NCBI GenBank assembly: GCA_030390025.1
Contig: JASTWF010000033.1
Coordinates: forward strand, 186,001-248,000
Length of the DNA stretch: 62,000 bases
Direction: 5' to 3'
Source of the DNA: Squalus acanthias
Taxonomy: Eukaryota
Shown here: piece after piece, positions 1 to 58,454 of the stretch
How positions within the stretch are numbered: the first letter of the stretch is position 1
Layout: every line of letters begins with the position of its first letter
Notes under the pieces: model-generated
What the model was told of the DNA's origin: nothing
The model's database searches: none
Seen by the model: the letters and a program-made list of their open reading frames with translations, nothing else
Translations under genes and position numbers: made by a program

Positions 1-1141
1 TCTTGATTAAGCCCTTTGTCCTCCTTTGCTCTATCTTAAACTGTTCCCAATCTTCCGCTCTGGCGCTTTTTTTGGCTATTTTATACGCCCTATCTTTGGA
101 TTTTATGCTGTCTCTAATTTCCCCTGTTATCCACGGTTGAGTCACCTTTTTAGATTTCCTTTTATGCCAGATTGGTATAAACAATTTTTGCAATTTTGTC
201 ATTCTATCTTTAAATGCTTGCCATTGTTTATCTACCTCCAGTCCTCCCAGGAACGTTGTCCAATCAGACCTACTCAGTTCCCGTCTAATGGCATCATAAT
301 TCCCCTTGTTTAAATTCAGGACCTTAGTATCTGAGTCAATTTCTTCGCTCTCCATTTCGAGTGAGAAATCGATCATGTTATGATCGCTCTGACCCAAGGG
401 TCCCCGTACAACAAGATTACTAATTAGTCCCTTCTCATTGCACAGTACCCAGTCCAATATAGCCTGTTCCCGAGTTGGTTCCTCGACATATTGATCCAGA
501 TAACCATCCCTTAAACACTCAAGGAATTCCTCCTCCTCATTATTTTTACTGATTAGGCTATTCCAATCTATATGTAAGTTAAAGTCACCTATGATGACAG
601 CTGTGCTCTTATTGCACGCTTCTCTAATTTCCCTCGTGATGCCCTCCCCAACCTCTATTTTACTATTTGGAGGCCTATATACCACTCCTATTAATGTTTT
701 TCGCCCCTCGCTATTTCTTAGCTCCACCCATATAGATTCTGTATTAACTGAGTTAATATCCTTCCTTTCAATTGCATTTATCCCTTCTTTTACCAGCAAT
801 GCTACCCCTCCTCCCTTTCTTTTTTGTCGATCCTTCCTAAATACTGAATACCCCTGTATGTTAAGCTCCCAGCCCTGCTTACCCTGCAACCATGTTTCCG
901 TAATCCCAATTAGATCATAATTATTAACCTCTATTTCCACAGCTAATTCATCTACCTTGTTCCTGATGCTTCTCGCATTAAGGTATAAAACCCTCAGGCT
1001 TTTTTTATGCTCACATTTTTTATGAATTAGTTTGGCCCTTTGTTTTTTGTTCCTCACTCTTTTACCATTTATTTCTGTCTGCCTTTCACTTTCCTCTATT
1101 TCACTACATAGGTTTCTAGCCCCCTGCCATACTAGTTTAAA
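1..1141 (-). CDS. CR1 ORF2 N-terminus (APE endonuclease), partial; no in-frame ATG before the domain
   Basis: Manual translation from 1141 gives FKLVWQGARNLCSEIEESERQTEINGKRVRNKKQRAKLIHKKCEHKKSLRVLYLNARSIRNKVDELAVEIEVNNYDLIGITETW. It then matches the 27679 ORF. Absent from the ORF track, presumably because it runs off the window without a stop. Confidence 0.88.
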
Positions 1142-2079
1142 TGCTCCCGAACTGCTTTATCAAAAATTACCCCGAGAACATCAGTTCCATCTTTGCACAG
1201 GTGTAGACCGTCCCTTTTGTATAGGTCACACCTACCACAAAACTGGTTCCAATGCCTCAAAAATTTAAAACCCTCCCTCTTACACCACTGCTCAAGCCAC
1301 GTATTTAGCCTAACTATCCTGTTCTCTGTACTCTTACTAGCACGTGGCACTGGTAGTAATCCAGAGATTACTACCTTCGAGGTCCTACTTTTTAGCTTGG
1401 CTCCTAACTCCCTAAATTCTACTTGTAGGACCTCTTCCCTTTTTTTAGCTACGTCGTTGGTACCAACATGTATCACGACAACTGGCTGTTCCCCCTCCCC
1501 CTCCAGAATGTTCTGCACCCGCGCCGAGACATCCTTGACCCTTGCACCAGGGAGGCAACATACCATCCTGGAGTCTCGGTCGCGACCACAGAAACCCCTA
1601 TCTATTCCCCTTACAATCGAATCCCCTATTACTATAGCCCTGCCACTCTTTTTCCCTCCCTTCTTTGCAACAGAGCCAGTCATGGTGCCATGAGCCTGGC
1701 TGCTGGTGCCTTCCCCCGATGAGTCATCCCCCCCGACAACAGCACCTAAGGCGGTGAACCTGTTGCTAAGGGAGACAACCCCAGGGGATTTCTGCACTAC
1801 CTTCCTGCCCTTGCTCTGCCTTTTGGTCACCCATGTACTATCTACGCTGGCCTTAACCTGCGGTGTGACCAACTCACTAAATGTGTTATCCACAACCCTC
1901 TCAGAATCGTGGATGCTCCAAAGTGAGTCCATCCGCAGCTCAAGGGCCGTCATGCGGTCCCACATGAGCTGCAGCTGGACACACTTCCCGCACACATGGT
2001 TGTCAGGGACACAGGAAGCGTCCCTGATTTCCCACATGTTACAGGAGGAGCATGACACAGGTCCGAGCTCTACTGCCAT
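1132..2079 (-). CDS. CR1 ORF1 protein: CxxC...CxxC zinc motif, coiled coil and SGNH/GDSL esterase domain (315 aa)
   Basis: CSSC...CGKC followed by a leucine-heptad-like stretch. SGNH blocks IGDS, LPGA, HVGTND and DGLH are present. ATG start and TAG stop are intact. Confidence 0.93.
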   Translation of the reverse strand: MAVELGPVSCSSCNMWEIRDASCVPDNHVCGKCVQLQLMWDRMTALELRMDSLWSIHDSERVVDNTFSELVTPQVKASVDSTWVTKRQSKGRKVVQKSPGVVSLSNRFTALGAVVGGDDSSGEGTSSQAHGTMTGSVAKKGGKKSGRAIVIGDSIVRGIDRGFCGRDRDSRMVCCLPGARVKDVSARVQNILEGEGEQPVVVIHVGTNDVAKKREEVLQVEFRELGAKLKSRTSKVVISGLLPVPRASKSTENRIVRLNTWLEQWCKREGFKFLRHWNQFCGRCDLYKRDGLHLCKDGTDVLGVIFDKAVREHLN

Positions 2080-2689
2080 GACTTAACCCTTATATTACTT
2101 TTTAATTTTCTAGTTTTAGTTTATTTATTGACATTTGTTTTCCCGAAGCTTACTTAGACCAATGTATACTGTACTCCTCTTATTCCTTTTTAAACTAACC
2201 AAATCCCACTAGTTTTAGTTTTACTTTCTAGGAAGGTTTGAGGAAAGTACTTACCAGTTAGTCTTACCTCCCTGGTCTTTCGCTGACTTCCCGGTCTTGT
2301 GTCCCCTTGGTCCTACGCCGACTTCCCGCTCCTCCCGGTTCCTGCCCTGCTGAAAAGAAACTGAGAGGTTGAATGGCCTTCTCCTGTGTTCCCATGGTGC
2401 TACTGTTTTAATTATAATGGATACAGAAATAAACAAGATCGAGATTGTCTTTTTGCAAATGAAATTGAATGAAATAATATCATAATCTCCTTTAATATTA
2501 CTGATCCGACTTTACAATATTGTTTGTAGGAATTTATCTTAGATATTAGCTGACAAAAAACATTTGCTGTTTATTAAACATGCTGAATAAATAAATATAT
2601 CAAAAGATGAATTTCATTTTCTTTCTATTCGTATTCAAGTTCTTACTGATTCAGTACTCAAACTAAGAGAAACATCTCGGACGGTAAGG

Positions 2690-2930
2690 GTCCCTTTAAG
2701 AGGCCTCGAGCAGACACTCCGTGGTCACAACCCTTGGTCAGAGGTCACAGGCTGCCCAAGCTGGGTCTCTTCGAAGCTGAGCGGAGGGTAGAGACGGCCC
2801 TTGACCATCTCCCCCGACCCGAAATCAATCGGAGAAACAGCCAATCATGGTGCTGTGACGTGCGGAAAGCATTGTGGCGTCATCTACTACAACGCAAAGC
2901 GCCGGCAGCCATTTTAAAAATCAGGTAATT
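2690..2930 (+). promoter_or_regulatory. Putative TATA-less CpG-rich promoter and first exon ending at a splice donor
   Basis: Locally CpG-rich in an AT-rich context. Motifs: CCAAT 2841-2845, TGACGTG 2856-2862, CGGAA 2863-2867, TGGCGTCA 2875-2882, YY1-like GCAGCCATTTT 2905-2915, donor CAG|GTAATT at 2924/2925. Confidence 0.6.
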
Positions 2931-3262
2931 GGCCATTAGGACCCTGCGGCCGCCCATCCGGCGGTGCTGTTAGGTCACGGTTCCAGGCTGTCTGACACAA
3001 TCAGTGGGTCACGATAAAGCTAAGGACAGATTGTGAGAGTTTTATTGTACGCTCTCGGGGAGTGTGTTTATGGCTATCAGGTCATCTGTCTGTTGTGGTG
3101 AGCCTTAGTTATTCTTAATTCGGACCTGACATTTATGTTTCTGCGTAGCTTCCTGTAGCATCCTGTTGGTTGGCAGCAGTCGCGTCCTAAAATTAAAGTG
3201 TCAATGATTGTCTCTACTGGTCACTGGGACCCTGAAGCACCGCTCACACTTAGTATCTGCAG

Positions 3263-3313
3263 CAAGATGGCCGCGCATGCGCTGCTTTCTCCCACTCTAC
3301 CAAGATGGCAGCC
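3263..3313. promoter_or_regulatory. YY1/NRF1 motif cluster cut off by a LINE fragment
   Basis: CAAGATGGCCGC (YY1) overlaps GCGCATGCGC (NRF1, 3273-3282). A second CAAGATGGCAGCC lies at 3301-3313. Confidence 0.45.
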
Positions 3314-3317
3314 AGGT

Positions 3318-4196
3318 GCCCCCTCAGCCTTCTCTGCTCTAAGGAAAACAACCCCAGCCTGTCCAGTCTCTCTTCATAGCTGAAGCGCACCAGCACAGGT
3401 AACATCCTGGTGAATCTCCTCTGCACCCTCTCCAATGCAATCACATCCTTCCTATAGTGTGGCAACCAGAACTGCACACAGTATTCCAGCCGTGGCCTAA
3501 CTAGCGTTTTGCTCAGCTCCATCATAACCTCCCTGCTCTTATATTCTATGCCTCGGCTAATGAAGGCAACTATCCCATACGCTTTTTTAACCACCTTGTC
3601 TACATGTCCTGCTGCCTTCAGGGATCTATGTACATGCACACCAAGGGCCCCCTGATCCTCTATCCTTCCTAGGATCCTACCATTCATTGTGTATTCCCTT
3701 GTCTTGTTAGTCCTCCCAAAATGCATCACCTCACACTTTTCAGGGTTAAGTTCCATTTGCCACTGTTCTGCCCATCTAACCAACCCGTCTATATCGTCCT
3801 GTAGCCTGAGGCTTCCCTCCTCGCTATTTACCACTCCCACAATTTTCGTGTCATCTGCGAACTTACTGATCATACCTACTACATTCATATCTAATCATTA
3901 ATGTACACTACAAACAGCAAAGGACCCAGCACCGATCCCTGCGGTACACCACTGGACAGAGGCTTCCAGTCACAAAAACAACCTTCGAGCACCACCCTCT
4001 GCCTTCTGCCACTAAGCCAATTTTGGATCCAATTTGCCAAATTGTCCTGGATCTCATGGGCTCTTACCTTCTTGACCAGTCTCAAATGCGGGACTTTGTC
4101 AAAAGCCTTACTGAAGTCTATGTAGACCACATCAACTGCACTACCCTCATCCACACACCTAGTCACCCCCTCGAAAAACTCAATCAAATTGGTTCG
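3318..4196 (-). mobile_element. CR1 LINE reverse-transcriptase fragment (disrupted)
   Basis: ORFs 3891-4187 (DFSKAFD, GVPQGSVLGP, YIND) and 3250-3888 (FADDTK, LEYCVQFW) are separated by a stop. Confidence 0.92.
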
Positions 4197-4505
4197 ACAT
4201 GTTGGATGAGCTGAAGTTTACCAAGGGTGGAAGATGGGAGGCAGGCGAAGAGAACATTGGAATAGTCTAGTCCGGAGGTAACAAAGACATAGATGAGGCT
4301 TTCAGCAGCAGATGGGCTGAAGCAATCATGGAGATGGGCGATATTACAGAGGTGGAAATAAATGGTCTAGTTATGGCGAAGGTATGTGATAGGACGCTCA
4401 GCTCAGGATCAAATCGAATGCTGAGGTTACGAACATACTGGCTCATCCTCAGATAGTTGCAACGGAGGGGGATGGAGTCGATGTCTAGGGAACGGATTGT
4501 GTGGC
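4197..4505 (-). mobile_element. L2-clade LINE RT C-terminal fragment (degenerate)
   Basis: Minus-strand translation gives ...NLSIRFDPELS... and ...LIYVFVTSGLDYSNVLFA..., which resembles the L2 'LIHAFVTSRLDYCN' motif. Confidence 0.65.
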
Positions 4506-5194: not shown

Positions 5195-6476
5195 AGATTG
5201 ATAGATTTTTTTAACGTAAGGGTATTAAGGGTTACTGAACCAAGGTGACTGGATGGAGTTAAGGTACAGATCACCCAAGATCTAATTGAATGATGAAACA
5301 GGCTCGAGGGACTGAATCGCCGACTCCTGTTCCTATGTTCCTAACAGGCTCGAGGGGCTGAATGGCCGACTCCTGTTCCTATGTTCCTAACAGGCTCGAG
5401 GGGCTGAATGGCCGATTCCTGTTCCTGTGTTCCTAACAGGCTCGAAGGGCTGAATGGCCGACTCCTGTTCCTATGTTCCTAACAGGCTCGAGGGGCTGAA
5501 TGGCCGATTCCTGTTCCTATGTTCCTAACAGGCTCGAGGGGCTGAATGGCCGATTCCTGTTCTTATGTTCCTAACAGGCTCGAGGGGGCTGAATGGCCGA
5601 TTCCTGTTCCTATGTTACAACAGGCTCGAGGGGCTGAATGGCCGATTCCTGTTCCTATGTTACAACAGGCTCGAGGGGGCTGAATGGACGATTCCTGTTC
5701 CTATGTAACAACAGGCTCGAGGGGGCTGAATGGCCGATTCCTGTTCCAATGTTTCAACAGACTCGGGGGGCTGAATGGCCGATTCCTGTTCCTATGTTTC
5801 AACAGACTTGGGGGGCTGAATGGCGATTCCTGTTCCTATGTTTCAACAGACTCGGGGGGCTGAATGGCCGATTCCTGTTCTTATGTTACAACAGGCTCGG
5901 GGGGCTGAATGGCCGATTCCTGTTCCTATGTTTCAACAGACTTGGGGGGCTGAATGGCCGATTCCTGTTCCTATGTTTCAACAGACTTGGGGGGCTGAAT
6001 GGCCGATTCCTGTTCCTATGTTACAACAGACTTGGGGGGCTGAATGGCCGATTCCTGTTCCTATGTTTCAACAGACTTGGGGGGCTGAATGGCCGATTCC
6101 TGTTCCTATGTTACAACAGGCTCGAGGGGGCTGAATGGCCGATTCCTTTTCCTATGTTACAACAGGCTCGAGGGGCTGAATGGCCGATTCCTGTTCCTAT
6201 GTTACAACAGGCTCGAGGGGGCTGAATGGCCGATTCCTGTTCCTATGTTATAACAGGCTCGAGGGGCTGAATGGCCGATTCCTGTTCTTATGTTACAACA
6301 GGCTCGGGGGGGGGGGCTGACTGGCCGATTCCTGTTCCGATGTTACAACAGGCTCGAGGGGGTGAATGGCCGATTCCTGTTCTTATGTTACAACAGGCTC
6401 GAGGGGGCTGAATGGCCGATTACTGTTCCTATGTTACAACAGGCTCGAGGGGGCTGAATGGCCGATTCCTGTTCCA
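5195..6476 (+). repeat. CR1 3' end followed by ~25 tandem copies of its terminal 46-47 bp
   Basis: Unit AACAGGCTCGAGGGG(G)CTGAATGGCCGATTCCTGTTCCTATGTT(CCT/AC/TC) from ~5297. It is homologous to the CR1 3' terminus at 30467-30510. Confidence 0.9.
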
Positions 6477-6588: not shown

Positions 6589-7125
6589 CATAGAAATATA
6601 GAAGATAGGAGCAGGAGTAGGCCATTCGGCCCCTCGAGCCTGCTCCGCCATTCAATGAGATCATGGCTGATCATCCAAACTCAGTGCCCTGTACCTGCTT
6701 TCTCCCCGTATCCCTTGATCCCTTTAGCTTTAAGAAATATATCTAAATAATTCCTGAATATATTTAATGACTTGGCCTCAACTACCTTCTGTGGTAGAGA
6801 ATTCCACAGGTGCACCATTCTCTGGGTGAAGAAATTCTTCCTCATTTCTGTCCTAAATGGCTTACCCCTTATCCTTAGATTATGACCCCTGGTTCTGGAC
6901 TCTCTGACCATCGGGAACATTCTTCCTGCATCTAGTTTGTCCAGACCTGTCGGAATTGTGTATGTTTCGATGAGATCCCCTCTCATTCTTCTATACTCCA
7001 GCGAGTTTAAGCCCAATCGACCCAAACTCTCCTCATATGTCATTCCTGCCATCCCAGGTATCAGCCCTGTGAATCTTCGCTGAACTCATTCCATGGCAAG
7101 AATATCTTTCCTCAGATGAGGCGAC
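6589..7125 (-). mobile_element. CR1 LINE 3' fragment with tail
   Basis: ORF 6681-7052 ends KGYGEKAGTGH like the 27679 ORF. 3' UTR and a short TCTAT-type tail are present. Confidence 0.92.
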
Positions 7126-7278: not shown

Positions 7279-8054
7279 GGTATTCGAAGGGGAGGGTTTG
7301 CAGACGAAAATCTGAAACCAAACATCTGACAGAATCTCTCGATTCATCAGGTCCTGAATGTCATCGGCCTTTGAATGTGGAAGGAGAAATGTTTGTCTGT
7401 TCTGCCTGTGAGAAAAGATTTCAAACATCAGTGTGACTGGAAAAGCACCGAGACACACACACCCGAGTGAGAGTGTTCCAGTGCACTGACTGTGGAAAGA
7501 GCTTTATCCAGTTACACAGCCTGAAAAAACATCGCACCATTCACAGCGGGGAGAAACCGTAAAGGAGTTCTCTGTGAGGAGGGGGATTCAACTGATCATC
7601 CAACCTGGAGAGACACAAGGACACCCGTACCAGGGAGAAACTGTGGAAATGTGGGGACTGTGGGAATGGATTCCTTTATCCGTCTGAACTGGAGATTCTT
7701 CATCGCAGTCACACTGGGGAGAGACCGTTCCCCTGCTCTGAGTGTGGGAACGGATTCATTGATTCATCTGACCTGCTGACACACCAGCGAGTTTATACCG
7801 GGGAGAGGCCGTTCCCCTGCTCTGAGTGTGAGAACGGATTCATTAATTCATCTGACCTGCTGACACACCAGCGAGTTCACACCGGGGAGAGACCGTTCCC
7901 CTGCTCTGAGTGTGGGAACGGATTCATTGATTCATCTGACCTGCTGACACACCAGCGAGTTTACACCGGGGAGAGGCCGTTCCCCCGCTTCGTCTGTGGG
8001 AAGGGATTCACTGGGTCATCTTTCTTGCTGAAACACCAGCGAGTTCACAAGTGA
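7279..8054 (+). pseudogene. C2H2 zinc-finger exon A: 3 stop-containing relic fingers, then 5 in-frame fingers lacking a start codon
   Basis: Acceptor ctccttttacag| at 7278. The frame from 7632 reads REKLWKCGDCGNGF...([25 protein letters not shown][Y/H])...HQRVHK-TGA(8052-8054). AGG sits at 7632 where ATG (MEKPWKC-type start) is expected. Several zinc ligands are lost (H>L, H>Y twice, C>R). Confidence 0.8.
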
Positions 8055-8925
8055 CTGCAGGGGTTGGATTCTGCTTTTATTGCTGCTGTTAATCACATCC
8101 CGGACTGAACCATGTTCATTCTGACAGTTGGGGTTTATTTCTGCTGATGTTAATAACACCTGTAACTGGGCTGGAGTTTAATATTTTGATATTTCAAATA
8201 ACACATTGTGTCGATATTTGATGTCTCCAAGATAAGAGGAGACTAATTGATGTCCTGTTACCAACTACTCCGTTTTTGGGCCTTTTCTCCTTTCTAACTC
8301 GAGATTATTTCAGTTCTCGTACCTTCGGTCACTCTCATGGACAAGTCCCAGCTCCCCATACCTGGGAAGAGACCATTCACCTGCTCTGAGTGTGGGAAGG
8401 GATTCAAGTGTTCATCCGACCTTCTGAACCACCAGCGAGTTCACACTGGGGAGAGACCTTTCACCTGCTCTGAGTGTGGGAAGGGATTCAAGTGTTCATC
8501 CGACCTGCTGACGCACCAGCGAGTTCACATTGGGGAGAAACCGTTCACCTGCTCCGTGAGTGGGAAGGGATTCAATCGGTCATCCCACCTGCTGAGACAC
8601 CAGCGAGTTCACACTGGGGAGAGACCGTTCACCTGCTCTGAGTGTGGGAAGGGGTTCAATCGGTCATCCCACCTGCTGAGATACCAGCGAGTTCACACTG
8701 GGGAGAGACCGTTCACCTGCTCTGAGTGTGGAAAGGGATTCAATCGGTCATCCCACCTGCTGAGACACCAGCGAGTTCACAAGTGACGGCAGAGGTTGGA
8801 TACTGCTGTTATTGCTGCTGTTAAGCACATCCCGGACTGAATCATGTTCATTCTGACAGTTGGGTTTTGTTCCTGCTGATGTTAATAACCCTGTAACTGG
8901 CTGGAGTTTAATATTCTTGATATAA
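8055..8925 (+). repeat. Duplicated ~140-bp ZNF 3' UTR module (8055-8195 and 8787-8925)
   Basis: Both stops are followed by ...ggttggat.ctgct.ttattgctgctgttaa.cacatcccggactgaa.catgttcattctgacagttggg...ctggagtttaatatt. Confidence 0.9.
8337..8786 (+). CDS. C2H2 zinc-finger protein with 5 tandem fingers (149 aa; fingers 3 and 4 each lack one Zn ligand); possibly a pseudogene
   Basis: 28-aa repeats with TGERPF linkers. Helices are CSSDLLN, CSSDLLT and RSSHLLR x3. Possible acceptor ctaac...ttatttcag| at 8313. No KRAB, SCAN or BTB domain is visible. Confidence 0.75.
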
Positions 8926-26900: not shown

Positions 26901-27661
26901 GAACATACTGCACCCACAGTGACATCACACACTGCCCCCTCCCTGGGACAGCTCAGAGTCAGACACTGAACAAACTGCACCCACAGTGACATCACACACT
27001 GCCCCCTCCCTGGGACAGCTCAGAGTCAGACACTGAACATACTGCACCCACAGTGACATCACACACTGCCCCCTCCCTGGGACAGCTCAGAGTCAGACAC
27101 TGAACATACTGCACCCACAGTGACATCACACACTGCCCCCTCCCTGGGACAGCTCAGAGTCAGACACTGAACAAACTGCACCCACAGTGACATCACACAC
27201 TGCCCCCTCCCTGGGACAGCTCAGAGTCAGACACTGAACATACTGCACCCACAGTGACATCACACACTGCCCCCTCCCTGGGACAGCTCAGAGTCAGACA
27301 CTGAACATACTGCACCCACAGTGACATCACACACTGCCCCCTCCCTGGGACAGCTCAGAGTCAGACACTGAACATACTGCACCCACAGTGACATCACACA
27401 CTGCCCCCTCCCTGGGACAGCTCAGAGTCAGACACTGAACACACTGCACCCACAGTGACATCACACACTGCCCCCTCCCTGGGACAGCTCAGAGTCAGAC
27501 ACTGAACATACTGCACCCACAGTGACATCACACACTGCCCCCTCCCTGGGGCAACTCAGAGTCAGACGCTGAACAAACTGCACCCACAGTGTCATCATGC
27601 AGTGCCCGCTCCCTGGGGCAGCTCAGAGTCAGACACTGAACTTACTGCACCCACAGTGACA

Positions 27662-30526
27662 AGGTAGATGAATTAGCTGTGGAAATAGAGGTTAATAATT
27701 ATGATCTAATTGGGATTACGGAAACATGGTTGCAGGGTGAGCAGGGCTGGGAGCTTAACATACAGGGGTATTCAGTATTTAGGAAGGATCGACAAAAAAG
27801 AAAGGGACGAGGGGTAGCATTGCTGGTAAAAGAGGGGATAAATGCAATTGAAAGGAAGGATATTAACTCAGTTAATACAGAATCTATATGGGTGGAGCTA
27901 AGAAATAGCGAGGGGCGAAAAACATTAATAGGAGTGGTATATAGGCCTCCAAATAGTAAAATAGAGGTTGGGGAGGGCATCACGAGGGAAATTAGAGAAG
28001 CGTGCAATAAGAGCACAGCTGTCATCATAGGTGACTTTAACTTACATATAGATTGGACTAGCCTAATCAGTAAAAATAATGAGGAGGAGGAATTCCTTGA
28101 GTGTTTAAGGGATGGTTATCTGGATCAATATGTCGAGGAACCAACTCGGGAACAGGCTATATTGGACTGGGTACTGTGCAATGAGAAGGGACTAATTAGT
28201 AATCTTGTTGTACGGGGACCCTTGGGTCAGAGCGATCATAACATGATCGATTTCTCACTCGAAATGGAGAGCGAAGAAATTGACTCAGAGACTCAGGTCC
28301 TGAATTTAAACAAGGGGAATTATGATGCCATTAGACGGGAACTGAGTAGGTCTGATTGGACAACGTTCCTGGGAGGACTGGAGGTAGATAAACAATGGCA
28401 AGCATTTAAAGATAGAATGACAAAATTGCAAAAATTGTTTATACCAATCTGGCATAAAAGGAAATCTAAAAAGGTGACTCAACCGTGGATAACAGGGGAA
28501 ATTAGAGACAGCATAAAATCCAAAGATAGGGCGTATAAAATAGCCGAAAAACGCGCCAGAGCGGAAGATTGGGAACAGTTTAAGATAGAGCAAAGGAGGG
28601 CAAAGGGCTTAATCAAGAAGGGCAAAATAGCTTACGAAAGCAAGCTGGCGGAAAATATAAAAACTAACTCCAAAAGCTTTTATAAGTATATCAAGAGGAA
28701 AAGACTGGTGAAAACCAAAGTTGGTCCATTGCAGTCAGATACGGGGGAATATATAATGGGAAATAAGGAAATGGCAGACCAACTAAATGCATACTTTGGG
28801 TCAGTCTTTACGAAGGAAGACACAAAAAACCTCCCTGGGATATCGGGAAAAATAGGGACATTGGCAAAGGAGGAACTGACGCAAATCAATATCTCTAAGG
28901 ATATGGTGTTAAGGAAGCTAAAGGGATTGAAGGCGGACAAATCCCCAGGGCCTGATAACATGCATCCTAGGGTACTGAAGGAGGTGGCCCTAGAGATAGC
29001 GGATGCACTAAGCATGATTTTTCAGAATTCATTAGACTCGGGAACAGTGCCCATGGATTGGAGGGTAGCTAACGTTACCCCACTATTCAAAAAGGGGGGT
29101 AGGGAAAAAGCAGGTAATTACAGACCTGTAAGCCTTACATCAGTTGTGGGCAAAATGCTGGAGTCCATCATTAAGGATGAAATAGCCGAGCACTTAGCAA
29201 ATGGGGACAGGATAGGACAGAGTCAACATGGATTTACAAAGGGTAAATCGTGCTTGACTAATCTATTGGAATTTTTTGAGGGAGTAACTGGTAAAATAGA
29301 TGGGGGAGAGCCAGTAGATGTGGTGTACCTGGACTTCCAAAAGGCCTTCGATAAGGTCCCACATAAAAGATTAGCATGGAAAATTGAAGCTCATGGGATA
29401 AAGGGGAAAGTATTGACGTGGATAGAGAACTGGCTGTCAGATAGAAAACAGAGAGTTGGAATAAACGGCTCATTTTCTGAATGGCAGGCAGTAACAAGTG
29501 GGGTACCACAGGGATCTGTCCTGGGTCCCCAGCTGTTCACAATTTATATTAATGACCTGGATCAGGGAGTCGAATGCAGCATTTCCAAATTTGCAGACGA
29601 CACTAAACTAGGAGGGGGGGTGGGCTCAGAGGAGGAGACCAGGAAGCTCCAGAGCGATTTGGACAGACTGGGTGATTGGGCGGATAAATGGCAGATGCAC
29701 TATAATGTGGACAAGTGCGAAGTTATCCACCTTGGGTGCAGGAACGGGAGGGCAAATTATTATTTAAATGGCAATAAATTGGGAGAGGGGGAAGTACAGA
29801 GAGACCTGGGTGTTCTTGTACACCAGTCACTGAAGGCGAGCATGCAGGTGCAACAGGCGGTCAAGAAGGCAAACGGTATGCTGGCCTTCATAGCAAAAGG
29901 GTTGGAATACAGGAACAGGGATACCTTGCTGCAGCTGTACAGGGCACTGGTGAGACCACACCTCGAGTACTGTGTACAGTTTTGGTCGCCTCATCTGAGG
30001 AAAGATGTTCTTGCCATGGAGGGGGTGCAGCGGCGATTCACCAGGCTGATACCAGGAATGGCGGGATTGACCTATGAGGAGAGACTATGTAGTTTAGGGA
30101 TGTACACACTGGAGTTTAGAAGATTGAGAGGGGACCTCATAGAAGTGTATAAAATTCTGACAGGTCTAGACAGATTAGATGCAGAAGGAATGTTTCCCTT
30201 GGCGGGTGAGAACAGAACTAGAGGACATAATTTAAGGATAAGGGCTAAACCATTTAGGACAGAAATGAGGGGGAATTTCTTCACTCAGAGAGTGGTGAAC
30301 CTGTGGAACTCATTGCCACAGAGGGCAGTGTACGCCAGCTCATTAAATATATTTAAGAGGGAATTAGATATATTTCTACAGGCAAAAGGGGTTAAGGGTT
30401 ACGGAGAGAAGGCGGGGACGGGATACTGAATTGAAGGATCAGCCATGATCTCATTAAATGGCGGAGCAGGCTCGAAGGGCCGGATGGCCTACTCCTGCTC
30501 CTATCTTCTATGTATCTATGTATCTA
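27662..30526 (+). mobile_element. 5'-truncated young CR1 LINE inserted in the 67-bp satellite
   Basis: Intact APE-RT frame, 3' UTR and (TCTATGTA)n tail. Flanked by TGACA at 27657-27661 and 30527-30531. Confidence 0.97.
27679..30429 (+). CDS. CR1 ORF2 (APE endonuclease plus reverse transcriptase), uninterrupted but N-terminally truncated
   Basis: Motifs ITETW, GVVYRPP, IGDFN, SDHNMI, KSPGPD, NYRPVSL, LDFQKAFD, GVPQGSVLGP, FADDTK. The listed start is a GTG inside the domain, and the LYLNARSIRN strand is missing. Confidence 0.93.
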   Translation: MEIEVNNYDLIGITETWLQGEQGWELNIQGYSVFRKDRQKRKGRGVALLVKEGINAIERKDINSVNTESIWVELRNSEGRKTLIGVVYRPPNSKIEVGEGITREIREACNKSTAVIIGDFNLHIDWTSLISKNNEEEEFLECLRDGYLDQYVEEPTREQAILDWVLCNEKGLISNLVVRGPLGQSDHNMIDFSLEMESEEIDSETQVLNLNKGNYDAIRRELSRSDWTTFLGGLEVDKQWQAFKDRMTKLQKLFIPIWHKRKSKKVTQPWITGEIRDSIKSKDRAYKIAEKRARAEDWEQFKIEQRRAKGLIKKGKIAYESKLAENIKTNSKSFYKYIKRKRLVKTKVGPLQSDTGEYIMGNKEMADQLNAYFGSVFTKEDTKNLPGISGKIGTLAKEELTQINISKDMVLRKLKGLKADKSPGPDNMHPRVLKEVALEIADALSMIFQNSLDSGTVPMDWRVANVTPLFKKGGREKAGNYRPVSLTSVVGKMLESIIKDEIAEHLANGDRIGQSQHGFTKGKSCLTNLLEFFEGVTGKIDGGEPVDVVYLDFQKAFDKVPHKRLAWKIEAHGIKGKVLTWIENWLSDRKQRVGINGSFSEWQAVTSGVPQGSVLGPQLFTIYINDLDQGVECSISKFADDTKLGGGVGSEEETRKLQSDLDRLGDWADKWQMHYNVDKCEVIHLGCRNGRANYYLNGNKLGEGEVQRDLGVLVHQSLKASMQVQQAVKKANGMLAFIAKGLEYRNRDTLLQLYRALVRPHLEYCVQFWSPHLRKDVLAMEGVQRRFTRLIPGMAGLTYEERLCSLGMYTLEFRRLRGDLIEVYKILTGLDRLDAEGMFPLAGENRTRGHNLRIRAKPFRTEMRGNFFTQRVVNLWNSLPQRAVYASSLNIFKRELDIFLQAKGVKGYGEKAGTGY

Positions 30527-33500
30527 TGACATCACACACTGCCCCCTCCCTGGGGCAGCTCAGAGTGAGACACTGAACATATTGCACCCACAGTGACATC
30601 ACACACTGCACCCACCCTGGGGCAGCTCAGAGTCAGACACTGAACATACTGCACCCACAGTGACATCACACACTGCCCCCTCACTGGGGCAGCTCAGAGT
30701 GAGACACTGAACTTACTGCACCCACAGTGACATCAAACACTGCCCCCTTCCTGGGGCAGCTCAGAGTGAGACACTGAACATTCTGCACCCACAGTGACAT
30801 CACACACTGCCCCCTCCCTGGGGAAGCCCAGAGTCAGACACTGAACATACTGCACCCACTGTGACATCACACACTGCCCCCTCCCTGGGGCAGCTCAGGT
30901 TCAGACACTGAACATGCTGCACCAACAGGGACATCACACAGTGCACCCTCCCTGGGGCCGCTCAGAGACAGACGCCGAACATACTGCACCCACAGGGACG
31001 TAACACTCTGTCCCTCCCTGGGGCAGCTCAGAATCAGACATTGAATACACCGCAACCAACAGAGGCATATAACACTGCCACCACCCTGGGGCTGCTCAGG
31101 GTGAGATACTGAACATACTGCATCCCACAGTGACATCGCACACTGCCCCCTCCCTGGGACAGCTCAGAGACAGACACCGAACATACTGAAACCACAGGGA
31201 CTTAAAACTATGCCCTTCCCTGGGGCAGCTCAGAGTCAGACACTGAACATACTGCATCCACAGTGACATCACACACTGCCCCCTCCCTGGGGCAGCTCAG
31301 AATCAGACACTGAACATACTGCACCCACAGTGACATCACACACTGCCCCCTCCCTGGGACAGCTCAGACTCAGACACTGAATATATTGCACATCACAGTG
31401 ACATTAAACACTGTCCCGTCCCTGAACCAGTCAAGGTCAGTCATTGAATATACTGCACCAAACAGGGACATCACACAATGCCACCTCCTTGGGGCAGCTC
31501 AGTTCAGTCATTGAACATACTGCACCCACAGTGATATCACACACTGCCCCCTCGCTGGGACAGTTCAGGGTCAGACACTGAACAAACTGCACGCACAGTG
31601 ACATCACTCACTGACCCCTCCCTGGGACAGTTCAGGGTCAGACACTGAACAAACTGCACCCACAGTGACATCACACACTGCCCCCTCCCTGGGGCAGCTC
31701 AGGTCAGACATTGAACATACTGCACCCACAGTGACATCACACGCTGCGCCCTTCCTGGGGCAGCTCAGGTCAGACATTGAACATACTGCACCCACAGTGA
31801 CATCACACGCTGCGCCCTCCCTGCGGCAGCTCAGGTCAGCCATTGAAAATACTGCACCCACAGTGACATCACAAACTTCCCCACCCTGGGGCAGCTCAGG
31901 TTAGACACTGAACATACTGCACCCACAGGGACATCACACACTGCCCCAACCCTGGGACAGCTCAGGTCAGACACCGAACATACTGCACCCACAGAGACAT
32001 TAAACACTGCCCCCTCCCTGGGGCAGCTCAGAGTCAGACACTGAACATACTGCACCACAGTGACATCACACACTGCCCCCTCGCTGGGACAGCTCAGAGT
32101 CAGACACTGAACATACTGCACCCACAGTGACATCACACACTGTCCCCTCCCTGGGACAGCTCAGAGTCAGACACTGAACACACTGCACCCACAGTGACAT
32201 CACACACTGCCCCCTCCCTGGGACAGCTCAGAGTCAGACACTGAACATACTGCACCACAGTGACATCACACACTGCCCCCTCCCTGGGACAGCTCAGAGT
32301 CAGACACTGAACATACTGCACCCACAGTGACATCACACACTGCCCCCTCCCTGGGACAGCTCAGAGTCAGACACTGAACATACTGCACCCACAGTGACAT
32401 CACACACTGCCCCCTCCCTGGGACAGCTCAGAGTCAGACACTGAACATACTGCACCCACAGTGACATCACACACTGCCCCCTCCCTGGACAGCTCAGAGT
32501 CAGACACTGAACATGCTGCACCCACAGTGACATCACACACTGCCCCCTCCCTGGGACAGCTCAGAGTCAGACACTGAACATACTGCACCCACAGTGACAT
32601 CACACACTGCTCCCTCCCTGGGACAGCTCAGGGTCAGACACTGAACATACTGCACCCACAGTGACATCACACACTGCCCCCTCCCTGGGACAGCTCAGAG
32701 TCAGACACTGAACATACTGCACCCACAGTGACATCACACACTGCCCCCTCCCTGGGACAGCTCAGAGTCAGACACTGAACACACTGCACCCACAGTGACA
32801 TCACACACTGCCCCCTCCCTGGGACAGCTCAGAGTCAGACACTGAACACACTGCACCCACAGTGACATCACACACTGCCCCCTCCCTGGGACAGCTCAGA
32901 GTCAGACACTGAACATACTGCACCCACAGTGACATCACACACTGCCCCCTCCCTGGGGCAGCTCAGTCAGACACTGAACATACTGCACCTACAGTGACAT
33001 CACACACTGCCCCCTCCCTGGGACAGCTCAGAGTCAGACACTGAACATACTGCACCCAGAGTGACATCACACACTGCCACCTCCCTGGGACAGCTCAGAG
33101 CCAGACATTGAACATACTGCACCCACAGTGACATGACACACTGCCCCCTCCCTGGGGCAGCTCAGGCCAGACACTGAACATACTGAACCTAGAGAGACAT
33201 CACACACTGCCCCCTCCCTTGATCAGCTCAGAGTCAGACACTGAACATGCTGCACCCCACTGTGACATCACACACTGCACCCTCCCTGGGACAGCTCAGA
33301 GTCAGACACTGAACATACTGCACCCACAGTGACATCAAAGACTGCTCCCTCCCTGGGGCAACTCAGGGTCAGAAACTGAACATACTGCAACCCACAGGAA
33401 TATCACGCACTGCCCCCTCCTTGGGGCAGCTCAGGGTCAGACACTGAACATACTGCACCCACAGTGACATCACACACTGCCCCCTCCCTGGTGAAGCACA

Positions 33501-37264: not shown

Positions 37265-40200
37265 TCAGTCAGGTCCAGACCGCCTCACCGGTCCATGTCC
37301 CAGACTAAACAGGACCCTCTCACCAGACACTGACCTAGATAGTACCAGATCATCCTTCACCAACCACAGACCAGACTGAACAAAACGCTCCCTCACCGAG
37401 CCCTCCCCCAACCTAAATCAGACAACCCTCACCAGTCTTTTTCCCAGACTAAAGCAGAACTTCCCTCACCAGAAACTGTCCGAAACTGAACCAGACACTC
37501 CATCACCAGAAACTGCCTCACACTGAAGCAGACCCTAACAAACCAGTCCCTGTCCCAGACTGAACCAACACTCCCACATCAGTCACTGTCCCAAACTGAA
37601 ACACACCCTCACTCACCAGCCCCTGAACCAGATTCTCCCTCACAGCCCCTGTCCCATACTGAACAAGACCCTCACTTAGCAGTCCCTGGCCCATACTGAA
37701 CAAGACCATCACTCACCAGTCCCTGGCCCATACTGAACAAGACCCTCCCTCAACAGTCCCTGTCCCAGACTGAACAAGACCCTCCCTCAACAATCCCTGT
37801 CCCAGACTGAACAAGACCCTCCCTCAACAGTCCCTGTCCCAGACTGAACAAGACCCTCCCTCACCAATCCCTGTCCCAGACTGAACAAGACCCTCCCTCA
37901 ACAATCCCTGTCCCAGACTGAACAAGACCATCACTCTCCTATCCCTGTCCCAGACTGAACAAGACCCAACCTCACCAGTCCCTGTCCCAGACTGAACAAG
38001 ACCCTCCCTCAACAATCCCTGTCCCAGACTGAACAAGACCATCACTCACCAGTCCCTGTCCCAGACTGAACGATTCCCTGTCTCGCATGCCCCTGTCACA
38101 GATTTCGCCAGATCCTGTTTCATCAGTCCCTGTTCCAGACTTAACCAGACCCTGACACACAAGCCGCTGTCCCAGACTGAAGCAGACCCTCCCTCACCAG
38201 TCCCTGTCTCAGACTGAAGCAAACCCACTCTCACCAGCCATTGTCCCAGACTGAACCAGACACTCCCACACCAGTCCCTGTCCCAGACTGAACCAGACCC
38301 TCCCTCACCAGTCCCTTTCCCAGACTAAAACAGAACTTCCCTCACCAGAAACTGTCCGAAACTGAACCAGACACTCCATCACTAGAAACTGCCTCACACT
38401 GAACTAGACCCTAACACACAAGCCCCTGTCCCAGACTGAACCAACACTCCCACATCATTCACTGTCCCAAACTGAAACACACCCTCCCACACCAGCCCCT
38501 GAACCAGATTTTCCCTCGCAAGTCACTGTCCCAGAGTGAACCAGACCCCCACACAACAGCACCTGAACCAGATTCACCCTCACCAGTCCCTGTCCAAGAC
38601 TGAAACAGACCTACCCTCACAGCCACTGTCCCAGACTTAACCAGACCTACCCTAACCAGTCTCTGTCCCAGACTGAACCAGAACCGCCCTCACCAGTCCC
38701 TGTCCCAGCCTGAACCAGACATACCCTCACAGCCCTTGTCCCAGACTGAACCAGACCTACCCTCAACAGTCCCTATCCCAGACTGAAACAGACATACCCT
38801 CACCAGCCCCTGTCCCAGACTGATCCTGACCCTCCCTCACCGGCCTCTGTCACAGACTGATCCAGACCCTCCCTCACCAGCCCCTGTCTCAGACTGAACC
38901 TGACCCTCCCTCACCAGCCTCTGTCCCAGACTGAACCAGACCCTCCCACACTACCTCTGTCCCAGACTGAACCAGTCCCTCCCTCCCCAGCCCCTGTCTC
39001 AGACTGAACAAGACCCTCCCTCCCCAGCCCCTGTCTCAGAAAGTACCAGACCCTCCCTCCCCAGCCCCTGTTCCTGACTGAACCAGACCCTCACTCACCA
39101 GTCCCTGTTCCTGACTGAACCAGACCATCCCTCCCCAGCCCCTGTTCCTGACTGAACCTGACCCTCCCTCCCCAGCCCCTGTTCCTGACTGAACCAGACC
39201 CTCCCTCACCAGTCCCTGTTCCAGACTGAATCACACCCTCCCTCACCAGTCCCAGTTCCAGACTGAAACACACCCTCCCAAACCATTCCCTGTTCGTGAA
39301 TGAACCAGTCTATCCCTCACCAGTCACTGTCCCAGATTGAACCGGACCCTCGCCCACCGGTCCCGGTCCGAGACAGAAAAAGATTCTCCCTCAGCCGCCC
39401 ATCTACCAGACTGAAACAGACCACTTTCTCACAAGCCGCTGTCACAGACTGAACCAGACCCTCCGTCACCAGTTCCTGTTCCAGACTGAACTAGACCCTC
39501 CCGCACCAGCACCTATCCCAGACTGAACCAGACCCTCCCTCACAATCACTGTTCCAGACTGAAAAAGACGCCCGGCACCAGTCACTGTCCCAACCACACC
39601 AGCCCCTGTTACAGATTGAACCAGACACTTCCTCACCAGCCCTTATCCCAAACTTAACCAGACTCTCCCTCAACAGTCCCTGTCCCAGACTGGACCAGAC
39701 ACTCCCTCACCAGACACTTTCCAGACATAACCAGACCATCCCTCAACAGTCCCTATCCCAGACTTAATCAGAGCCTGTCTCACCAGACCCTCTCCCAGAC
39801 ATTACCAGACCCTCCTTCACCAGTCCCCATCCTAGACTTAACCAGACATACCCTCACCAGTCCCTGTCCCAGACTGAACCAGACCTACCCTCACAGCCCC
39901 ATTCCCAGACTTAACCAGACCCTATCTCACCAGTCCCTGTCCCAGACTGAACCAGACATACCCTCACCAGAGCCTGTCCCAGACTGAACCAGACCTACCC
40001 TCACGGCACCTGTCCCAGACTGAACCTGATTTACCTTACCAGCCTCATTCACAGACTGAACCAGACCCTCCCGCACCAGTCCCTGTTCCTGACTGAACCA
40101 GACCCTCACTCACCAGTCCCTGTTCCTGACTGAACCAGACCCTCCCTCACCAGCCACCGTCCCAGACTGAACCAGACCCTCCCTCACCAGCCTCTGTCCC

Positions 40201-43200
40201 AGACTAATCCTGACCCTCCCTCACCAGTCTCTGTCCCAGACTGAACCTGACCCTCCCTCACCAGTCCCTGTTGCTGACTGAATCAGACCCTCCCTCACCA
40301 GTCCTTGTTCCTGACTGAACCAGACCCTCCCTCACCAGTCCCCGTTCCTGACTGAACCAGACCCTCCCTCACCAGTCCCTGTTCCTGACTGAACCAGACC
40401 CTCCCTCACCAGTCCCTGTTCCTGACTGAATCAGACCCTCCCTCACCAGTCCTTGTTCCTGACTGAACCTGACCCTCCCTCACCAGTCCCTGTTCCTGAC
40501 TGAACCAAACCCTCACTCACCAGTCCCTGTTCCTGACTGAACCAGACCCTCCCTCACCAGCCACTGTCCCAGACAGATCCTGACCCTCCCTAACCAATCA
40601 CTGTCCCAGATTGAACCATACCCTCCCGCACCAGTCTCTGTCCTAGATTGAACCGGACCCTCGCCCACCGGTCCCGGTCCGAGACAGAAAAAGATTCTCC
40701 CTCAGCCGCCCATCTACCAGACTGAAACAGACCACTTTCTCACAAGCCGCTGTCACAGACTGAACCAGACCCTCTGTCACCAGTTCCTGTCCCAGAATTA
40801 ACCAGACGCCCCGGCAAACGACTCAACCCCAGACGGAACCAGAGCCAACCTCGCCAGTCCCTATCTCAGACTTAAGCAGATCCTGTCGCACCAGACCCTG
40901 TCCCAGACTGAACCAGACCCTCCCTCAGCAGTCCCTGTCCCGGACTGAAACAGACCATCCCTCCCCAGTCCCTCTCCCAGACTAAAGCGGAACCTGCCTC
41001 ATCAGTCCCTGTTCCTGTCTGAACCAGACCCTCCCTCACCAGTCCCTGTTCCAGACTGAAAAAGACCCTCCCACATCAGCCACTGTTCCAGACTGAAACA
41101 GTCCCTCCCACACCAGTCCATCTCCCAGACTGAACCCGACCCTCCCTCACCAGTCCCTGTTCCAGACTGAACCAGACCCTCCCACACCAGCCAGTGTTCC
41201 AGACAGAAACAGACTCTCCCTCTCCAGTCCCTGTTCCAGACTGAACCAGACCCTCCCACACCAGCCCCTGTTCCAGACTGAAACAGACTCTCCCTCACCA
41301 GTCCCTCTCCCAGACTGAACCAGACCCTCCCACACCAGCCCCTGTTCCAGACTGAAACAGACTCTCCCTCACCAGTCCCTCTCCCAGACTGAACCAGACC
41401 CTCCCTCGCCAGTCCCTGTCCCAGACTGAAGCAGACCCTCCCTCGCCAGTCCCTGTCCCAGACTGAACTAGACCCTCCCTCAAAAGCCCTTGTCCCAGAC
41501 TTAACCAGACTCTCCCTCACCAGTCCCTGTCCCGGACTGAAACAGACCATCCCTCCCCAGTCCCTCTCCCAGACTAAAGCGGAACCTGCCTCATCAGTCC
41601 CTGTTCCTGTCTGAACCAGACCCTCCCTCACCAGTCCCTGTTCCAGACTGAAAAAGACCCTCCCACATCAGCCACTGTTCCAGACTGAAACAGTCCCTCC
41701 CACACCAGTCCATCTCCCAGACTGAACCCGACCCTCCCTCACCAGTCCCTGTTCCAGACTGAACCAGACCCTCCCACACCAGCCAGTGTTCCAGACAGAA
41801 ACAGACTCTCCCTCTCCAGTCCCTGTTCCAGACTGAACCAGACCCTCCCACACCAGCCCCTGTTCCAGACTGAAACAGACTCTCCCTCACCAGTCCCTCT
41901 CCCAGACTGAACCAGACCCTCCCACACCAGCCCCTGTTCCAGACTGAAACAGACTCTCCCTCACCAGTCCCTCTCCCAGACTGAACCAGACCCTCCCTCG
42001 CCAGTCCCTGTCCCAGACTGAAGCAGACCCTCCCTCGCCAGTCCCTGTCCCAGACTGAACTAGACCCTCCCTCAAAAGCCCTTGTCCCAGACTTAACCAG
42101 ACTCTCCCTCACCAGTCCCTGTCCCAGACTGAACTAGACCCTCACTCAAAAGCCCTTGTCCCAGACTTAACCAGACCATCCCTCACCAGTCGCTGTCCCA
42201 GACTTCACCAGACGCCCCGGCAAACGACCCTGACCCAGACGGAACCAGAGCCAACCTCACCCGTCCCTATCACATACTTAAGCAGATCCTGTCGCACCAG
42301 ACACTGTCCCTGACTTAACCAGACCCTGTCTCACCAGTCCCTGTTCCACACTGAACCAGACCCTTACTCACCGGGCACGGTCCCAGATAGAACCAGACAC
42401 TCCCTCACCAGCCCCTGTCCCAGTCTGAACTAATCACTGCCTCAACAGCTCCTGTCCTAGACTGACCCAGATACTCCCTCGCCAAACAATGTCCCAGATA
42501 GAAACAAGTCATCCCTCACCAGCCCCTGTCCCAGACTAAACCATACATAGCCTCAACAGCCCTGTCCCAGACTGAACCAGACCCACCCTCATCAGCCCCT
42601 GTTCCAGACTGAACCAGACCCTCCCTCATCAGTCCCTGTCCCAAACTGAACCAGACCCTCCCTCATCAGCCCCTGTTCCAGACTGAACCAGACACTCCCT
42701 CAACAGCCCTGTCCCAGACTAAACCAGAACCTCCCTCAACAGCCCTGTCCCAAACTAAACAAGACCCTCCCTCACCAGCCCCTGTCCCAAACTGAACCAG
42801 ACACTCCCTCAACAGCCCTGTCCCAGACTAAACCAGAACCTCCCTCAACAGCCCCTGTCCCAAACTGAACCAGACACTCCCTCAACAGCCCCTGTCCCAG
42901 ACTAATCCAGACCCTCCCTCAACAGCCCCTGTCCCAAACTGAACCAGACACTCCCTCAACAGCCCCTGTCCCACACTAATCCAGATCCTCCATCACAAGC
43001 CCCTTTCCCAGACTGGGCCAGACGCCCCGTTACCCGACCATGTCCCAGACTAAACCAGACTCAACCTCACCAGTCCCTTTCCAGACTAAACCAGAACCTC
43101 CCCCACCCGTCCCTGTCCCAGACTGAACCAGACCCTCCCACACCAGTCCCTCTCCCAAACTGAACAAGACACTCCCTCAACAGCCCTGTCCCAGACTAAA

Positions 43201-46200: not shown

Positions 46201-46545
46201 GACCAAAAGTGCACACAATACTCAAGGTTTGGTATCCGTTCCAGACTGAACCAGACCCGCCCTCACCAGCCGCTGTACCAGACTGAACGATATGCTCTTT
46301 CACTGGTCCCTGTCCCAGACAGAACCATAGTCCCACGCCGACGGCTGTCCCAGTCTAAACCATACACTCACTCATCGACTACTATCCCAGACTGAACCAG
46401 ACCCCCACTCCCCAGTCCCCATCCCAGACTGAGCCAGACCCACCCTCACCAGTCCCTTTCCCGGATTGTACCAGACCAACGCTCAGCAGTCCCCATCCCA
46501 GTCAAGACCAGACCCTCCCACACCAGCCCCTCACCAGCCCCTGAT
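37265..46545. repeat. 37-bp satellite array (~235 monomers)
   Basis: Consensus CCAGTCCCTGTCCCAGACTGAACCAGACCCTCCCTCA. More diverged than the 67-bp array; strongly C-rich top strand. Confidence 0.96.
45668..46233 (-). mobile_element. CR1 3' fragment inserted in the 37-bp satellite
   Basis: ORF 45759-46064 ends KGYVEKAGTGY. Closely similar to 6589-7125. The satellite resumes on both sides. Confidence 0.92.
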
Positions 46546-48051: not shown

Positions 48052-48716
48052 ATAGAATCATAGAATCATTCTACACAGAAATAGGCCATTCGGACCACCG
48101 TCCCTGTGCCGACTCTCTGAAAGAGCTATTCAATTAGTCCCACTACCATGCTCTTTCCCCATTGTCCTGTAAATGTTTCCTTTTTAACTATATATCGAAT
48201 TCCTTTTTGAAAGATACTATTGAATCTGCTTCCACCTTCTTTCAGGCACTACATTCCAGATCACAACAACTCGCTGTGGAAAAACAAATCACCTGATCTC
48301 CCAATGTGATTTATTTGCCAAATCTCTTAACTCTGTGTCCTGTGGTTACCGACCCTCATGCCAGTAGAAACTGTATATTCCTATCTACCCTATCAAAAGC
48401 CCTAATAATTTTGAACACCTCTATTAAGTCTCCCCTTGATTTCATTGCTGTAAGAGGAGCAATACCAGCTTCTCTATTCTCTCCACGTAACTGAATTCCC
48501 TCATCACTGGGCCCATTCTGGTAAATCTCATCAGCATCATCTTCAAGGTATTGACATCCTTTCTAAAGTGTGATGCCCAGAAGTGGATACATTACTCCAG
48601 CTTAGACCTAATCACTGATTTATAAAGATTTAGCATAACTTCCTTGCTTTTGTACTCTATACCGCTATTAATAAAACCAAAGAACCCGTATGTTTTATTA
48701 ACAGCCTTCTCAACTT
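48052..48716 (-). mobile_element. Older CR1 3' fragment, interrupted by the next element
   Basis: ATAGAATC tail repeats at 48052-48068 and a degenerate ORF2 C-terminus. It appears to resume near 50225-50290. Confidence 0.8.
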
Positions 48717-50205: not shown

Positions 50206-51025
50206 CTATAAATGTTTTGTTTAGCCACTTCACAGATTAGTGTGTGTTAATCCCCAGGTCTCTTGGTCTTGCACCCCCTATAAAATTCATCTCTTAACAT
50301 TGCCGATATTTATCACTGCATTCTTCAGACCGGCCCCTCAGTGTCACACAGCAGGGTTTGATCATTTTGTCATGATGAACCATATGGACCTTCTTGGAGA
50401 TGTCAATCTTGGTATCATTACATTGCACCTTTCTCTGTTTCCTGTTTGCTGCTCATCACCACCAACCCGCTCTAAGATTGCATGGTTCAGAAGACAGCTG
50501 ACCAGATCTGTCGAGTTTAGCTGCAGGTGTTGACCTGCTCAACATGGGGCGGGTTCGCCCCCAATTTTCATAATGACTTATGTTTTTTTGTCTGCAGGAA
50601 ATCAGATTTAAGAAGTTAGTCACAAGTGCTGCCTAACCTAAATAATCCATTTACTAATAAAGATTTTACACTAATCAATTCAGCTGAATTGCGATCAGTT
50701 GATAGACAGCCAGCAAGAGTTGTTACTATCTGGTTTAACCTGTGTACCATTCAGTAAACACACTTATTTCGGATCTAATTTTTAGGAGTAATACCTTGTT
50801 AGTTTGCTGCAACATAGCGCTCAGCTCGCAGAATGCAAGTTACTGAGCCGTAACTGAGCACTGGTCCCAGACCAGCCTTCTGTAGCGTGTCGGCAGATTG
50901 TGACCGACAGCCGAATAATACAAGTACTGGTGCCGAGAAACATTGGAAATGTTAGTTCCTGGCTATGCTGTGCGATTTCTTTGCAATGCTTTGACCTATT
51001 TGCCAAGGTCATTCTTATTTTAGTA

Positions 51026-57890: not shown

Positions 57891-57899
57891 TAGTAGAGT

Positions 57900-58445
57900 T
57901 AACCAAGTGGCCCACTACCCTGCTCTTTCCCCATAGCCCTATAATTTGTCCCCTTCAAGTAATTATCCAATTCTCTTTTGAATGTTACTATTGAATCTGC
58001 TTCCACCACCGTTTCAGGCAGTGCATCCCAGATCACGAAAACTCGTTGTGCAAAAGAATGTTTCCTCATGTCACCTCTGGTTGATTTGCCAATCACCTTG
58101 AATCTTTGTTTTGTTGTTAACGACACTTCTGCCATTGGAAATAGTTTATCATTATTTACTCTGTCAAAAGCTTTCATGATTGTGAACACCTCTTTCTAAA
58201 CTCTTCTAACCGTCTCTGCTCTAAGGAGAACAACCCCGGCTTCTCCAATGTCTCAACATAACTGAAGTCTCTCATCCCTGGTGCCATACCAGTAAATCTC
58301 TTCTGCACCGTTTCCATGTTCCTGGCATCATTCCTAAAGTGTGGTGCCCGGACATGAACGTCACACTCCAGCTGAGACCTAATCAGTGTTTTATAAATTT
58401 TCAGCATAATTTCCTTGCTTTGGTACTTTATTTCACTCTTAATAA
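57900..58445 (-). mobile_element. CR1 3' fragment (second subfamily)
   Basis: ORFs 57899-58189 and 58174-58407 (GLFSLEQRRL, WDALPETVVEA). Confidence 0.85.
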
Positions 58446-58454
58446 GGACTCCTC

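Follow-up and report, generated by a model that had tools for sequence, protein, structure and literature searches.

How does a ribosome reach the second reading frame of a CR1 element? CR1 is a dominant LINE of birds, reptiles and sharks, and the window that we analysed, a 62,000-nucleotide stretch of a Squalus acanthias contig, carries at its left end the 5′ half of a minus-strand LINE, with two overlapping frames that meet at a slippery heptamer. For LINEs in general it has long been asked how a bicistronic RNA yields ORF2, and the answer reviewed for LINE-1, in the available text of PMC5009743, is an unusual form of reinitiation. For the esterase-type CR1 LINE, we think it likely from sequence comparison that ORF1 and ORF2 are joined in a fusion made by programmed −1 frameshifting. 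The initial annotation of this locus had raised the same idea, which now draws support from conservation in relatives and from protein tails that point to heptamer swaps, the slippage itself being what these patterns would imply.

The element and its junction

ORF1 (2079-1132, minus strand) encodes 315 aa and ends EHLN before its stop. The N-terminus combines a Cys-rich, zinc-finger-like segment with a heptad region, and the C-terminus is an SGNH esterase in which the GDS, G, GTN and DxxH motifs are all intact (Pfam GDSL/SGNH, PF13472, E 4e-11). At E<=1e-10 there are 116 homologues, the closest named one from a sawshark (69%), with rays and other sharks at about 50%. Upstream is a probable 5′ UTR (2080..2350, minus strand), whose upper boundary we infer, with GTAAG donor-like sites near 2269 and 2255. 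These sites (2255-2269, minus strand) are strong, and in the homologues P0027, P0061 and P0159 pieces of CR1 ORF1 have been taken up into host gene models.

Over the last two sense codons of ORF1, and in the ORF1 phase X_XXY_YYZ, lies the heptamer U_UUA_AAC (TTTAAAC, 1141-1135, minus strand), directly abutted by the UAG stop (1134-1132), exactly as the initial annotation had it. The ORF2 frame, which is −1 to ORF1 (2..1156, minus strand), is shut by TGA TAA five codons 5′ of the heptamer, stays open from 1156 until it runs off the window, and carries an APE domain (Pfam PF03372 and PF14529) beyond a 52-codon linker, with the APE motif at 985. That this frame opens into APE with no in-frame ATG close by was also claimed and is borne out, the first Met being codon 256 after the heptamer (376-374), 3′ of the endonuclease SDH motif; likewise, the sole nearby ATG (1130-1128) does begin a 4-codon ORF in the +1 frame (1116..1130, minus strand), which relatives do not keep as such. 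Past the stop, at +8 to +15 from the heptamer, is the motif GCAGGGGG (1120..1127, minus strand; consensus G-N-N-GGGGG), to which we return below.

A second, 5′-truncated copy of the same CR1 family (27659..30528, plus strand) lacks the junction and holds an open APE-RT frame. It is 99% identical to the first copy over 960 nt, so that the family must be young, and it closes with a 3′ UTR of ~100 nt and a short microsatellite tail. A short 3′ UTR with such a tail is a CR1-clade feature. The ORF2 of this copy matches APE and RT, with no RNase H family match in Pfam, and the Pfam search found no protease domain in the element. The RT of the window family is 43% identical to a duck element, and L2-like and RTE-like proteins of fish share 26% and 25% with it, in a tree that included no curated references and whose base is open. 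Esterase-type CR1 elements correspond to CR1 subgroup 7, with an ORF1 of type IVB, in the available text of Metcalfe and Casane 2014 (PMC4120745). As described there, and for chicken CR1 in the accessible part of PMC2734521, these elements resemble ours in pairing a zinc-finger/zipper and esterase ORF1 with an APE-RT ORF2 and a short 3′ UTR; in the portions available, both papers handle ORF2 as a separate ORF, and the word ‘frameshift’ is absent with respect to its expression.

The young copy at 27659-30528 sits within a 28 kb satellite (9245-37109; 416 copies of 67-bp units, 84% matches, strong strand skew), which is directly followed by a tandem array of ~8 kb (37283-45668) with a 37-bp basic unit and multiples of 74 and 111. 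At 5297-6475 a 46-bp unit, by eye like the CR1 3′ UTR end at 30460-30528, is repeated in tandem ~26 times, so this satellite has apparently been built from a LINE 3′ end. C2H2 zinc-finger arrays with an 84-bp period and two open frames (7596-8786, plus strand) probably belong to a zinc-finger gene or pseudogene, and older CR1/L2-like RT fragments, at 35-76% protein identity to the young family, lie at 3304-4202, 6684-7124, 45762-46232, 48149-50209, 57326-58449 and 60532-61784.

How much weight should a single heptamer bear? TTTAAAC occurs 9 times in the 62,000-nt window, and within the two ORFs of the element 8 of 1,246 codons are in-phase XXXYYYZ sites (TTTAAAC itself, 2 of 1,246). Since in-phase sites thus arise at ~0.6% per codon, one heptamer is only modest evidence, and it is conservation in relatives that lifts it above chance.

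Conservation of the junction in relatives

Bird-type CR1 loci came from a metagenome scan with the ORF1 alignment, which gave 27 loci at ~30% ORF1 identity, of which 18 end before the junction and 9 span it. TTTAAAC stands at the ORF1 end in 8 of these 9, with TAG next in 7 of those 8; L001 and L021, whose ORF1 frame breaks just upstream, and L011, which is without the junction, count as decayed copies and were all kept in the denominators. Scanning genome contigs with a third ORF1 group added 26 loci, of which 18 are LINE copies lying in eukaryotic DNA that had been binned with bacterial assemblies and 8 are weak bacterial-genome matches. Here, with ORF1 stops placed by protein anchoring and no use made of the heptamer, TTTAAAC TAG is found in 16 of 17 spanning loci (L044, the exception, reads TTTAAAG), and the heptamer is also present in 2/2 further copies. 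These loci represent two families in three assemblies, and we therefore count them as one lineage. Genome-contig searches with an APE query and with a junction pattern gave no match, and no relatives were found among viral contigs, where two pattern matches (L031 and L032) proved not to be CR1.

The bacterial labels attached to some of these sequences deserve a comment of their own. Loci L033-L048, L050 and L051, from assemblies G001-G003, are eukaryotic LINE copies that entered bacterial bins as host contamination; G001 (17.8 Mb) holds 22-23 ORF1 matches, and P0012, labelled a bacterial hydrolase, is a CR1 ORF1 at 58% identity.

Across the three lineages the heptamer is invariant in 10/10 representative loci, at a depth where ORF2 identity is 32-43% and where codons at shared 4-fold residues are identical in only 5/28 to 9/30 cases between lineages and in 23/71 between two bird subfamilies. 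Synonymous sites are saturated between lineages, and even between the two bird subfamilies, and given Leu-Asn the joint synonymous chance of T-TTA-AAC is 0.035, 0.010 and 0.005 in the three lineages. The initial annotation had proposed looking for phase-specific conservation of TTTAAAC across CR1 elements, and in all three lineages, saturated as they are, the outcome is positive. Closer to home, a sister subfamily ~85% identical to the window element, represented by contigs from public runs, differs among the matches listed at 1143, 1132, 1120 and 1119, with no change at 1133-1142 or 1121-1131 in those matches; the codon before the heptamer is thus altered and TAG has become TAA, while the heptamer is kept. 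Nucleotide conservation at the junction exceeds what the protein needs. Beyond it, the distance from heptamer to APE varies (38, 43, 52, 53 or 89 codons), and the −1 frame is open throughout in the window and in 7 intact loci. In the third lineage the first Met falls at codon 54-59, 3′ of the APE motif at 38-43, so that a usable ATG is absent in two of the three lineages.

The protein ends of ORF1 extend this comparison to a far wider set. ORF1 ends LN in sharks, rays, alligator, painted turtle, Komodo dragon, duck, swallow and an eel, the LN end being placed 25 to 39 residues beyond the catalytic Asp. Among 97 non-redundant esterase tails not of the L2 type, 43 end LN, 6 end GN and 11 carry KN, and the other 37 fit no type (22 other, 3 other-N, 12 long or fused), many of them looking decayed. 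Residues with no U-ending codon (E, K, Q, M or W) precede LN in 0/43 tails versus 35/172 control positions (p=2e-4; P0007, which has Glu before LN, was dropped by the redundancy filter ahead of this count), and preceding residues with pyrimidine-only versus purine-only third positions number 15/0 before LN and 0/8 before GN or KN (p=2e-6), both p-values overstating independence because the tails are related by descent, and the search profiles themselves ending in LN. GN always has Gln in front. Such a pattern would follow from exchange of the first triplet among UUU, GGG and AAA before A_AAC, giving U_UUA_AAC, G_GGA_AAC and A_AAA_AAC, and at the protein level it points strongly to such swaps, with the GN and KN heptamers read back from protein. 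We searched for DNA of the GN and KN families and found none; a query of the GN type brought up 78 weakly scoring loci, in bacterial genomes by title. All three heptamers are among the four shiftiest named in the available text of PMC5009743.

One KN family allows the frame relation to be approached in protein. P0262 and P0323 are 93% identical upstream; the ORF1 tail of the former and the APE-joined extension of the latter are compatible with a −1 relation at 14/15 residues, where 2,000 shuffles reach at most 10, and this would amount to an indirect demonstration for that family. ORF1 in this family runs ~12 codons past the site, and the overlap is without Met in the −1 frame. In addition, FKL, the −1 reading of the heptamer, appears in four predicted proteins of frame-broken copies (P0038, P0063, P0121 and P0247). 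Only 1 of 29 L2-type (DGxHP) esterase tails ends LN, and, since these tails almost never do, the esterase fold itself does not need this end. Three further tails, KDF, LGFC and QFFH (P0307, P0334 and P0271), could hide G_GAU_UUU, G_GGU_UUU and U_UUU_UUY, respectively. No natural family with an intact single-ORF fusion was seen among 9 longer proteins, which is weak evidence in any case.

Proposed frameshifting and its rivals

We propose that most ribosomes would stop at UAG and release the 315-aa ORF1 protein, while a smaller share, their tRNA-Leu paired with UUA and their tRNA-Asn with AAC, would slip one base back to UUU and AAA, read CUA (Leu) next and pass through the length-variable linker into APE and RT. 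The predicted product, in the manner of gag-pol, is an ORF1–ORF2 fusion of ~1,300 aa, a length estimated from the second copy, and the element encodes no protease. The adjacent stop may add a pause.

What might stimulate slippage? A feature that the initial annotation did not mention is the linear G-rich motif at +8 to +15: G at +8 and GGGGG at +11 to +15 are invariant in 10/10 representative loci, usually as G-C/A-A-GGGGG, and the amino acid whose codon ends at +8 may be Trp, Met, Ser or Gly. Structure, by comparison, is elusive. That no convincing pseudoknot would be found had been said of the window, and the observation holds there and in the folding of 8 loci, where downstream z-scores lie between -2.4 and +1.6 with no common structure, where no hairpin or pseudoknot stem is conserved across loci and where local helices of >=5 pairs form in different places in each locus. 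Folding of the 80 nt downstream in the window, a check proposed at the outset, yields -5.9 kcal/mol (z +0.5) and no significant fold. A hairpin upstream of the site in the window (z -1.85) was considered and set aside, as it is not common to the bird loci. A G-quadruplex is predicted in 2/8 loci only, a long-range partner for the G-motif scores no better (-20.1) than shuffled probes (-15.8 to -23.2), and an Rfam search of window positions 1-4500 returned nothing near the gathering score. A structural stimulator 5-9 nt downstream is customary at −1 sites, though some do without it; as none of the structures sought here proved to be conserved, the efficiency of frameshifting could be low. According to the available text of PMC5009743, most 3′ stimulators sit 6-9 nt past the slip site, and linear ones act through rRNA or proteins. 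The G-rich motif, 8 nt past the heptamer, is probably a linear 3′ stimulator of this kind, acting via rRNA or a bound protein, and this candidate role is a weak step in our argument.

Of the competing explanations, termination-reinitiation fares best, and we consider it unlikely as the general route. Here, ORF2 would be a separate protein begun, in the style of LINE-1, SART1 or calicivirus, at the codon two bases past the stop, AUG or not, with the conserved block as its signal. Beyond what the initial annotation had described, an in-frame ATG does stand right after the stop in some bird subfamilies, so that reinitiation stays alive as a rival or as a second route: codon 5 of the ORF2 frame, two bases past the stop, is ATG in 4 of 7 bird loci (L001, L002, L003 and L008) and GTG in L005, with TTG and GTG implied by P0038 and P0121. 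LINE-1 ORF2 initiation is described as AUG-independent in the available text of PMC5009743, such that a missing ATG on its own proves little, and the accessible part of PMC2734521 presents the ORF2 product of chicken CR1 as a 95-kDa protein in its own right. However, the start codon is not conserved, the same codon being TGG, TCG or GGG in the window, in L009 and L012 and in the whole third lineage; a UGGGA motif occurs within 120 nt upstream in 1/8 loci only; the ~12-codon overlap of the KN family holds no −1-frame Met; and neither the in-phase X_XXY_YYZ nor the apparent LN, GN and KN triplet swaps are explained. It could of course run beside frameshifting in bird subfamilies, and it may work there alone.

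A very improbable alternative is that the block is a DNA or RNA element outside decoding, such as an internal promoter, a TATA-like element or a packaging or ORF1p-binding site, with ORF2 made in some other way. Conservation at the nucleotide level, including a G-run without a pairing partner, would sit comfortably with this idea, but the codon phase is strict, the first triplet seems to have changed between U, G and A, and the window offers no Met to a sub-genomic mRNA before the APE domain ends. Selection acting only on a Leu-Asn protein end, with the heptamer as a by-product, is more doubtful still and largely refuted: L314 and N315 are indeed invariant in alignment A1, but the synonymous choices are fixed against codon usage (13 of the 118 upstream Leu codons are TTA), only residues that have a U-ending codon precede LN, and L2-type esterases end otherwise. 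Least credible of all is the use of the stop’s AG as a splice acceptor with donors in the 5′ UTR, giving an ORF2-only mRNA, for despite the two GTAAG donor-like sites there and a TAG-GT-ATG arrangement in some bird loci, the AG varies (the sister subfamily has TAA as its stop, and P0038 implies the same), no pyrimidine tract precedes it, the window’s first ATG past it is out of frame and, as weak evidence, no such joint appears among contigs covering 900-1400.

Known systems and the meaning of a proposed CR1 fusion

The mechanism of −1 frameshifting is textbook knowledge for viruses and LTR elements, and SART1 is known to use UAAUG coupling. Our preferred reading, programmed −1 frameshifting, would bring CR1 close to several viral sites that are summarised in the available text of PMC5009743. 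The coronavirus IBV 1a/1b site has the same U_UUA_AAC heptamer in the same phase, and both IBV 1a/1b and retroviral gag-pol and pro-pol share with CR1 a structural-type ORF upstream and a polymerase ORF in the −1 frame; the conserved 3′ element of CR1 also begins at the usual 6-9 nt distance. CR1 differs in being a non-LTR retrotransposon with no protease domain, in that no pseudoknot or stem-loop was found at its junction and in that its 3′ element looks linear. In this last respect the linear 3′ stimulators of Semliki Forest virus, Ty3 and the arterivirus and cardiovirus protein-stimulated sites (also from the accessible part of PMC5009743) are instructive, since in them too a short 3′ stretch close to the mRNA entry channel is conserved and has no evident fold, whereas the CR1 candidate is a G-rich motif at +8 to +15 with a putative activity.

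Among LINEs, the comparison with LINE-1 is of a shared problem, in that unconventional termination-reinitiation (PMC5009743, available text) likewise obtains ORF2 from a bicistronic RNA. The ORFs of LINE-1 and SART1 are, however, separated or joined stop to start, whereas the CR1 frames overlap across the slippery heptamer. Sequence-based proposals exist in other clades, namely Penelope-like elements, where an ORF1 set off by a frameshift and pseudoknot would give access to RT by frameshifting (PMC8557442, in part), and non-LTR elements of Paramecium, with a proposed +1 shift or reinitiation (PMC5405496, in part); in the text available, neither has the CR1 signal. Among non-LTR elements, the frameshifting review names only HeT-A and TART in its available text (PMC5009743). 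We found no account of CR1 frameshifting in the literature searched, papers on CR1 ORF1 and on chicken CR1 among it, a search whose coverage stops short of the founding 1997-2003 CR1 papers and the Repbase reports, and priority is therefore uncertain.

Should the same hold for esterase-type CR1 as a whole, from cartilaginous fish, reptiles and birds to one or more additional deep lineages, these elements would share an uncleaved fusion made by −1 frameshifting and an ancient, structure-free G-rich stimulator, with distant families swapped to G_GGA_AAC or A_AAA_AAC; we lean, if only a little, towards this broader view. The finding yields a testable cassette of 25 nt and a candidate linear stimulator shared by lineages whose synonymous sites are saturated. 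If the proposal is true, the annotation of intact CR1 copies and of their ORF2 starts would change, and the active CR1 enzyme would be an esterase-endonuclease-RT fusion, linked in this way to the part in membrane binding that has been suggested for the esterase (PMC3905857 and PMC5408684, available text). A major LINE clade would then be using a gag-pol-like strategy, a route that had not been expected for LINEs.
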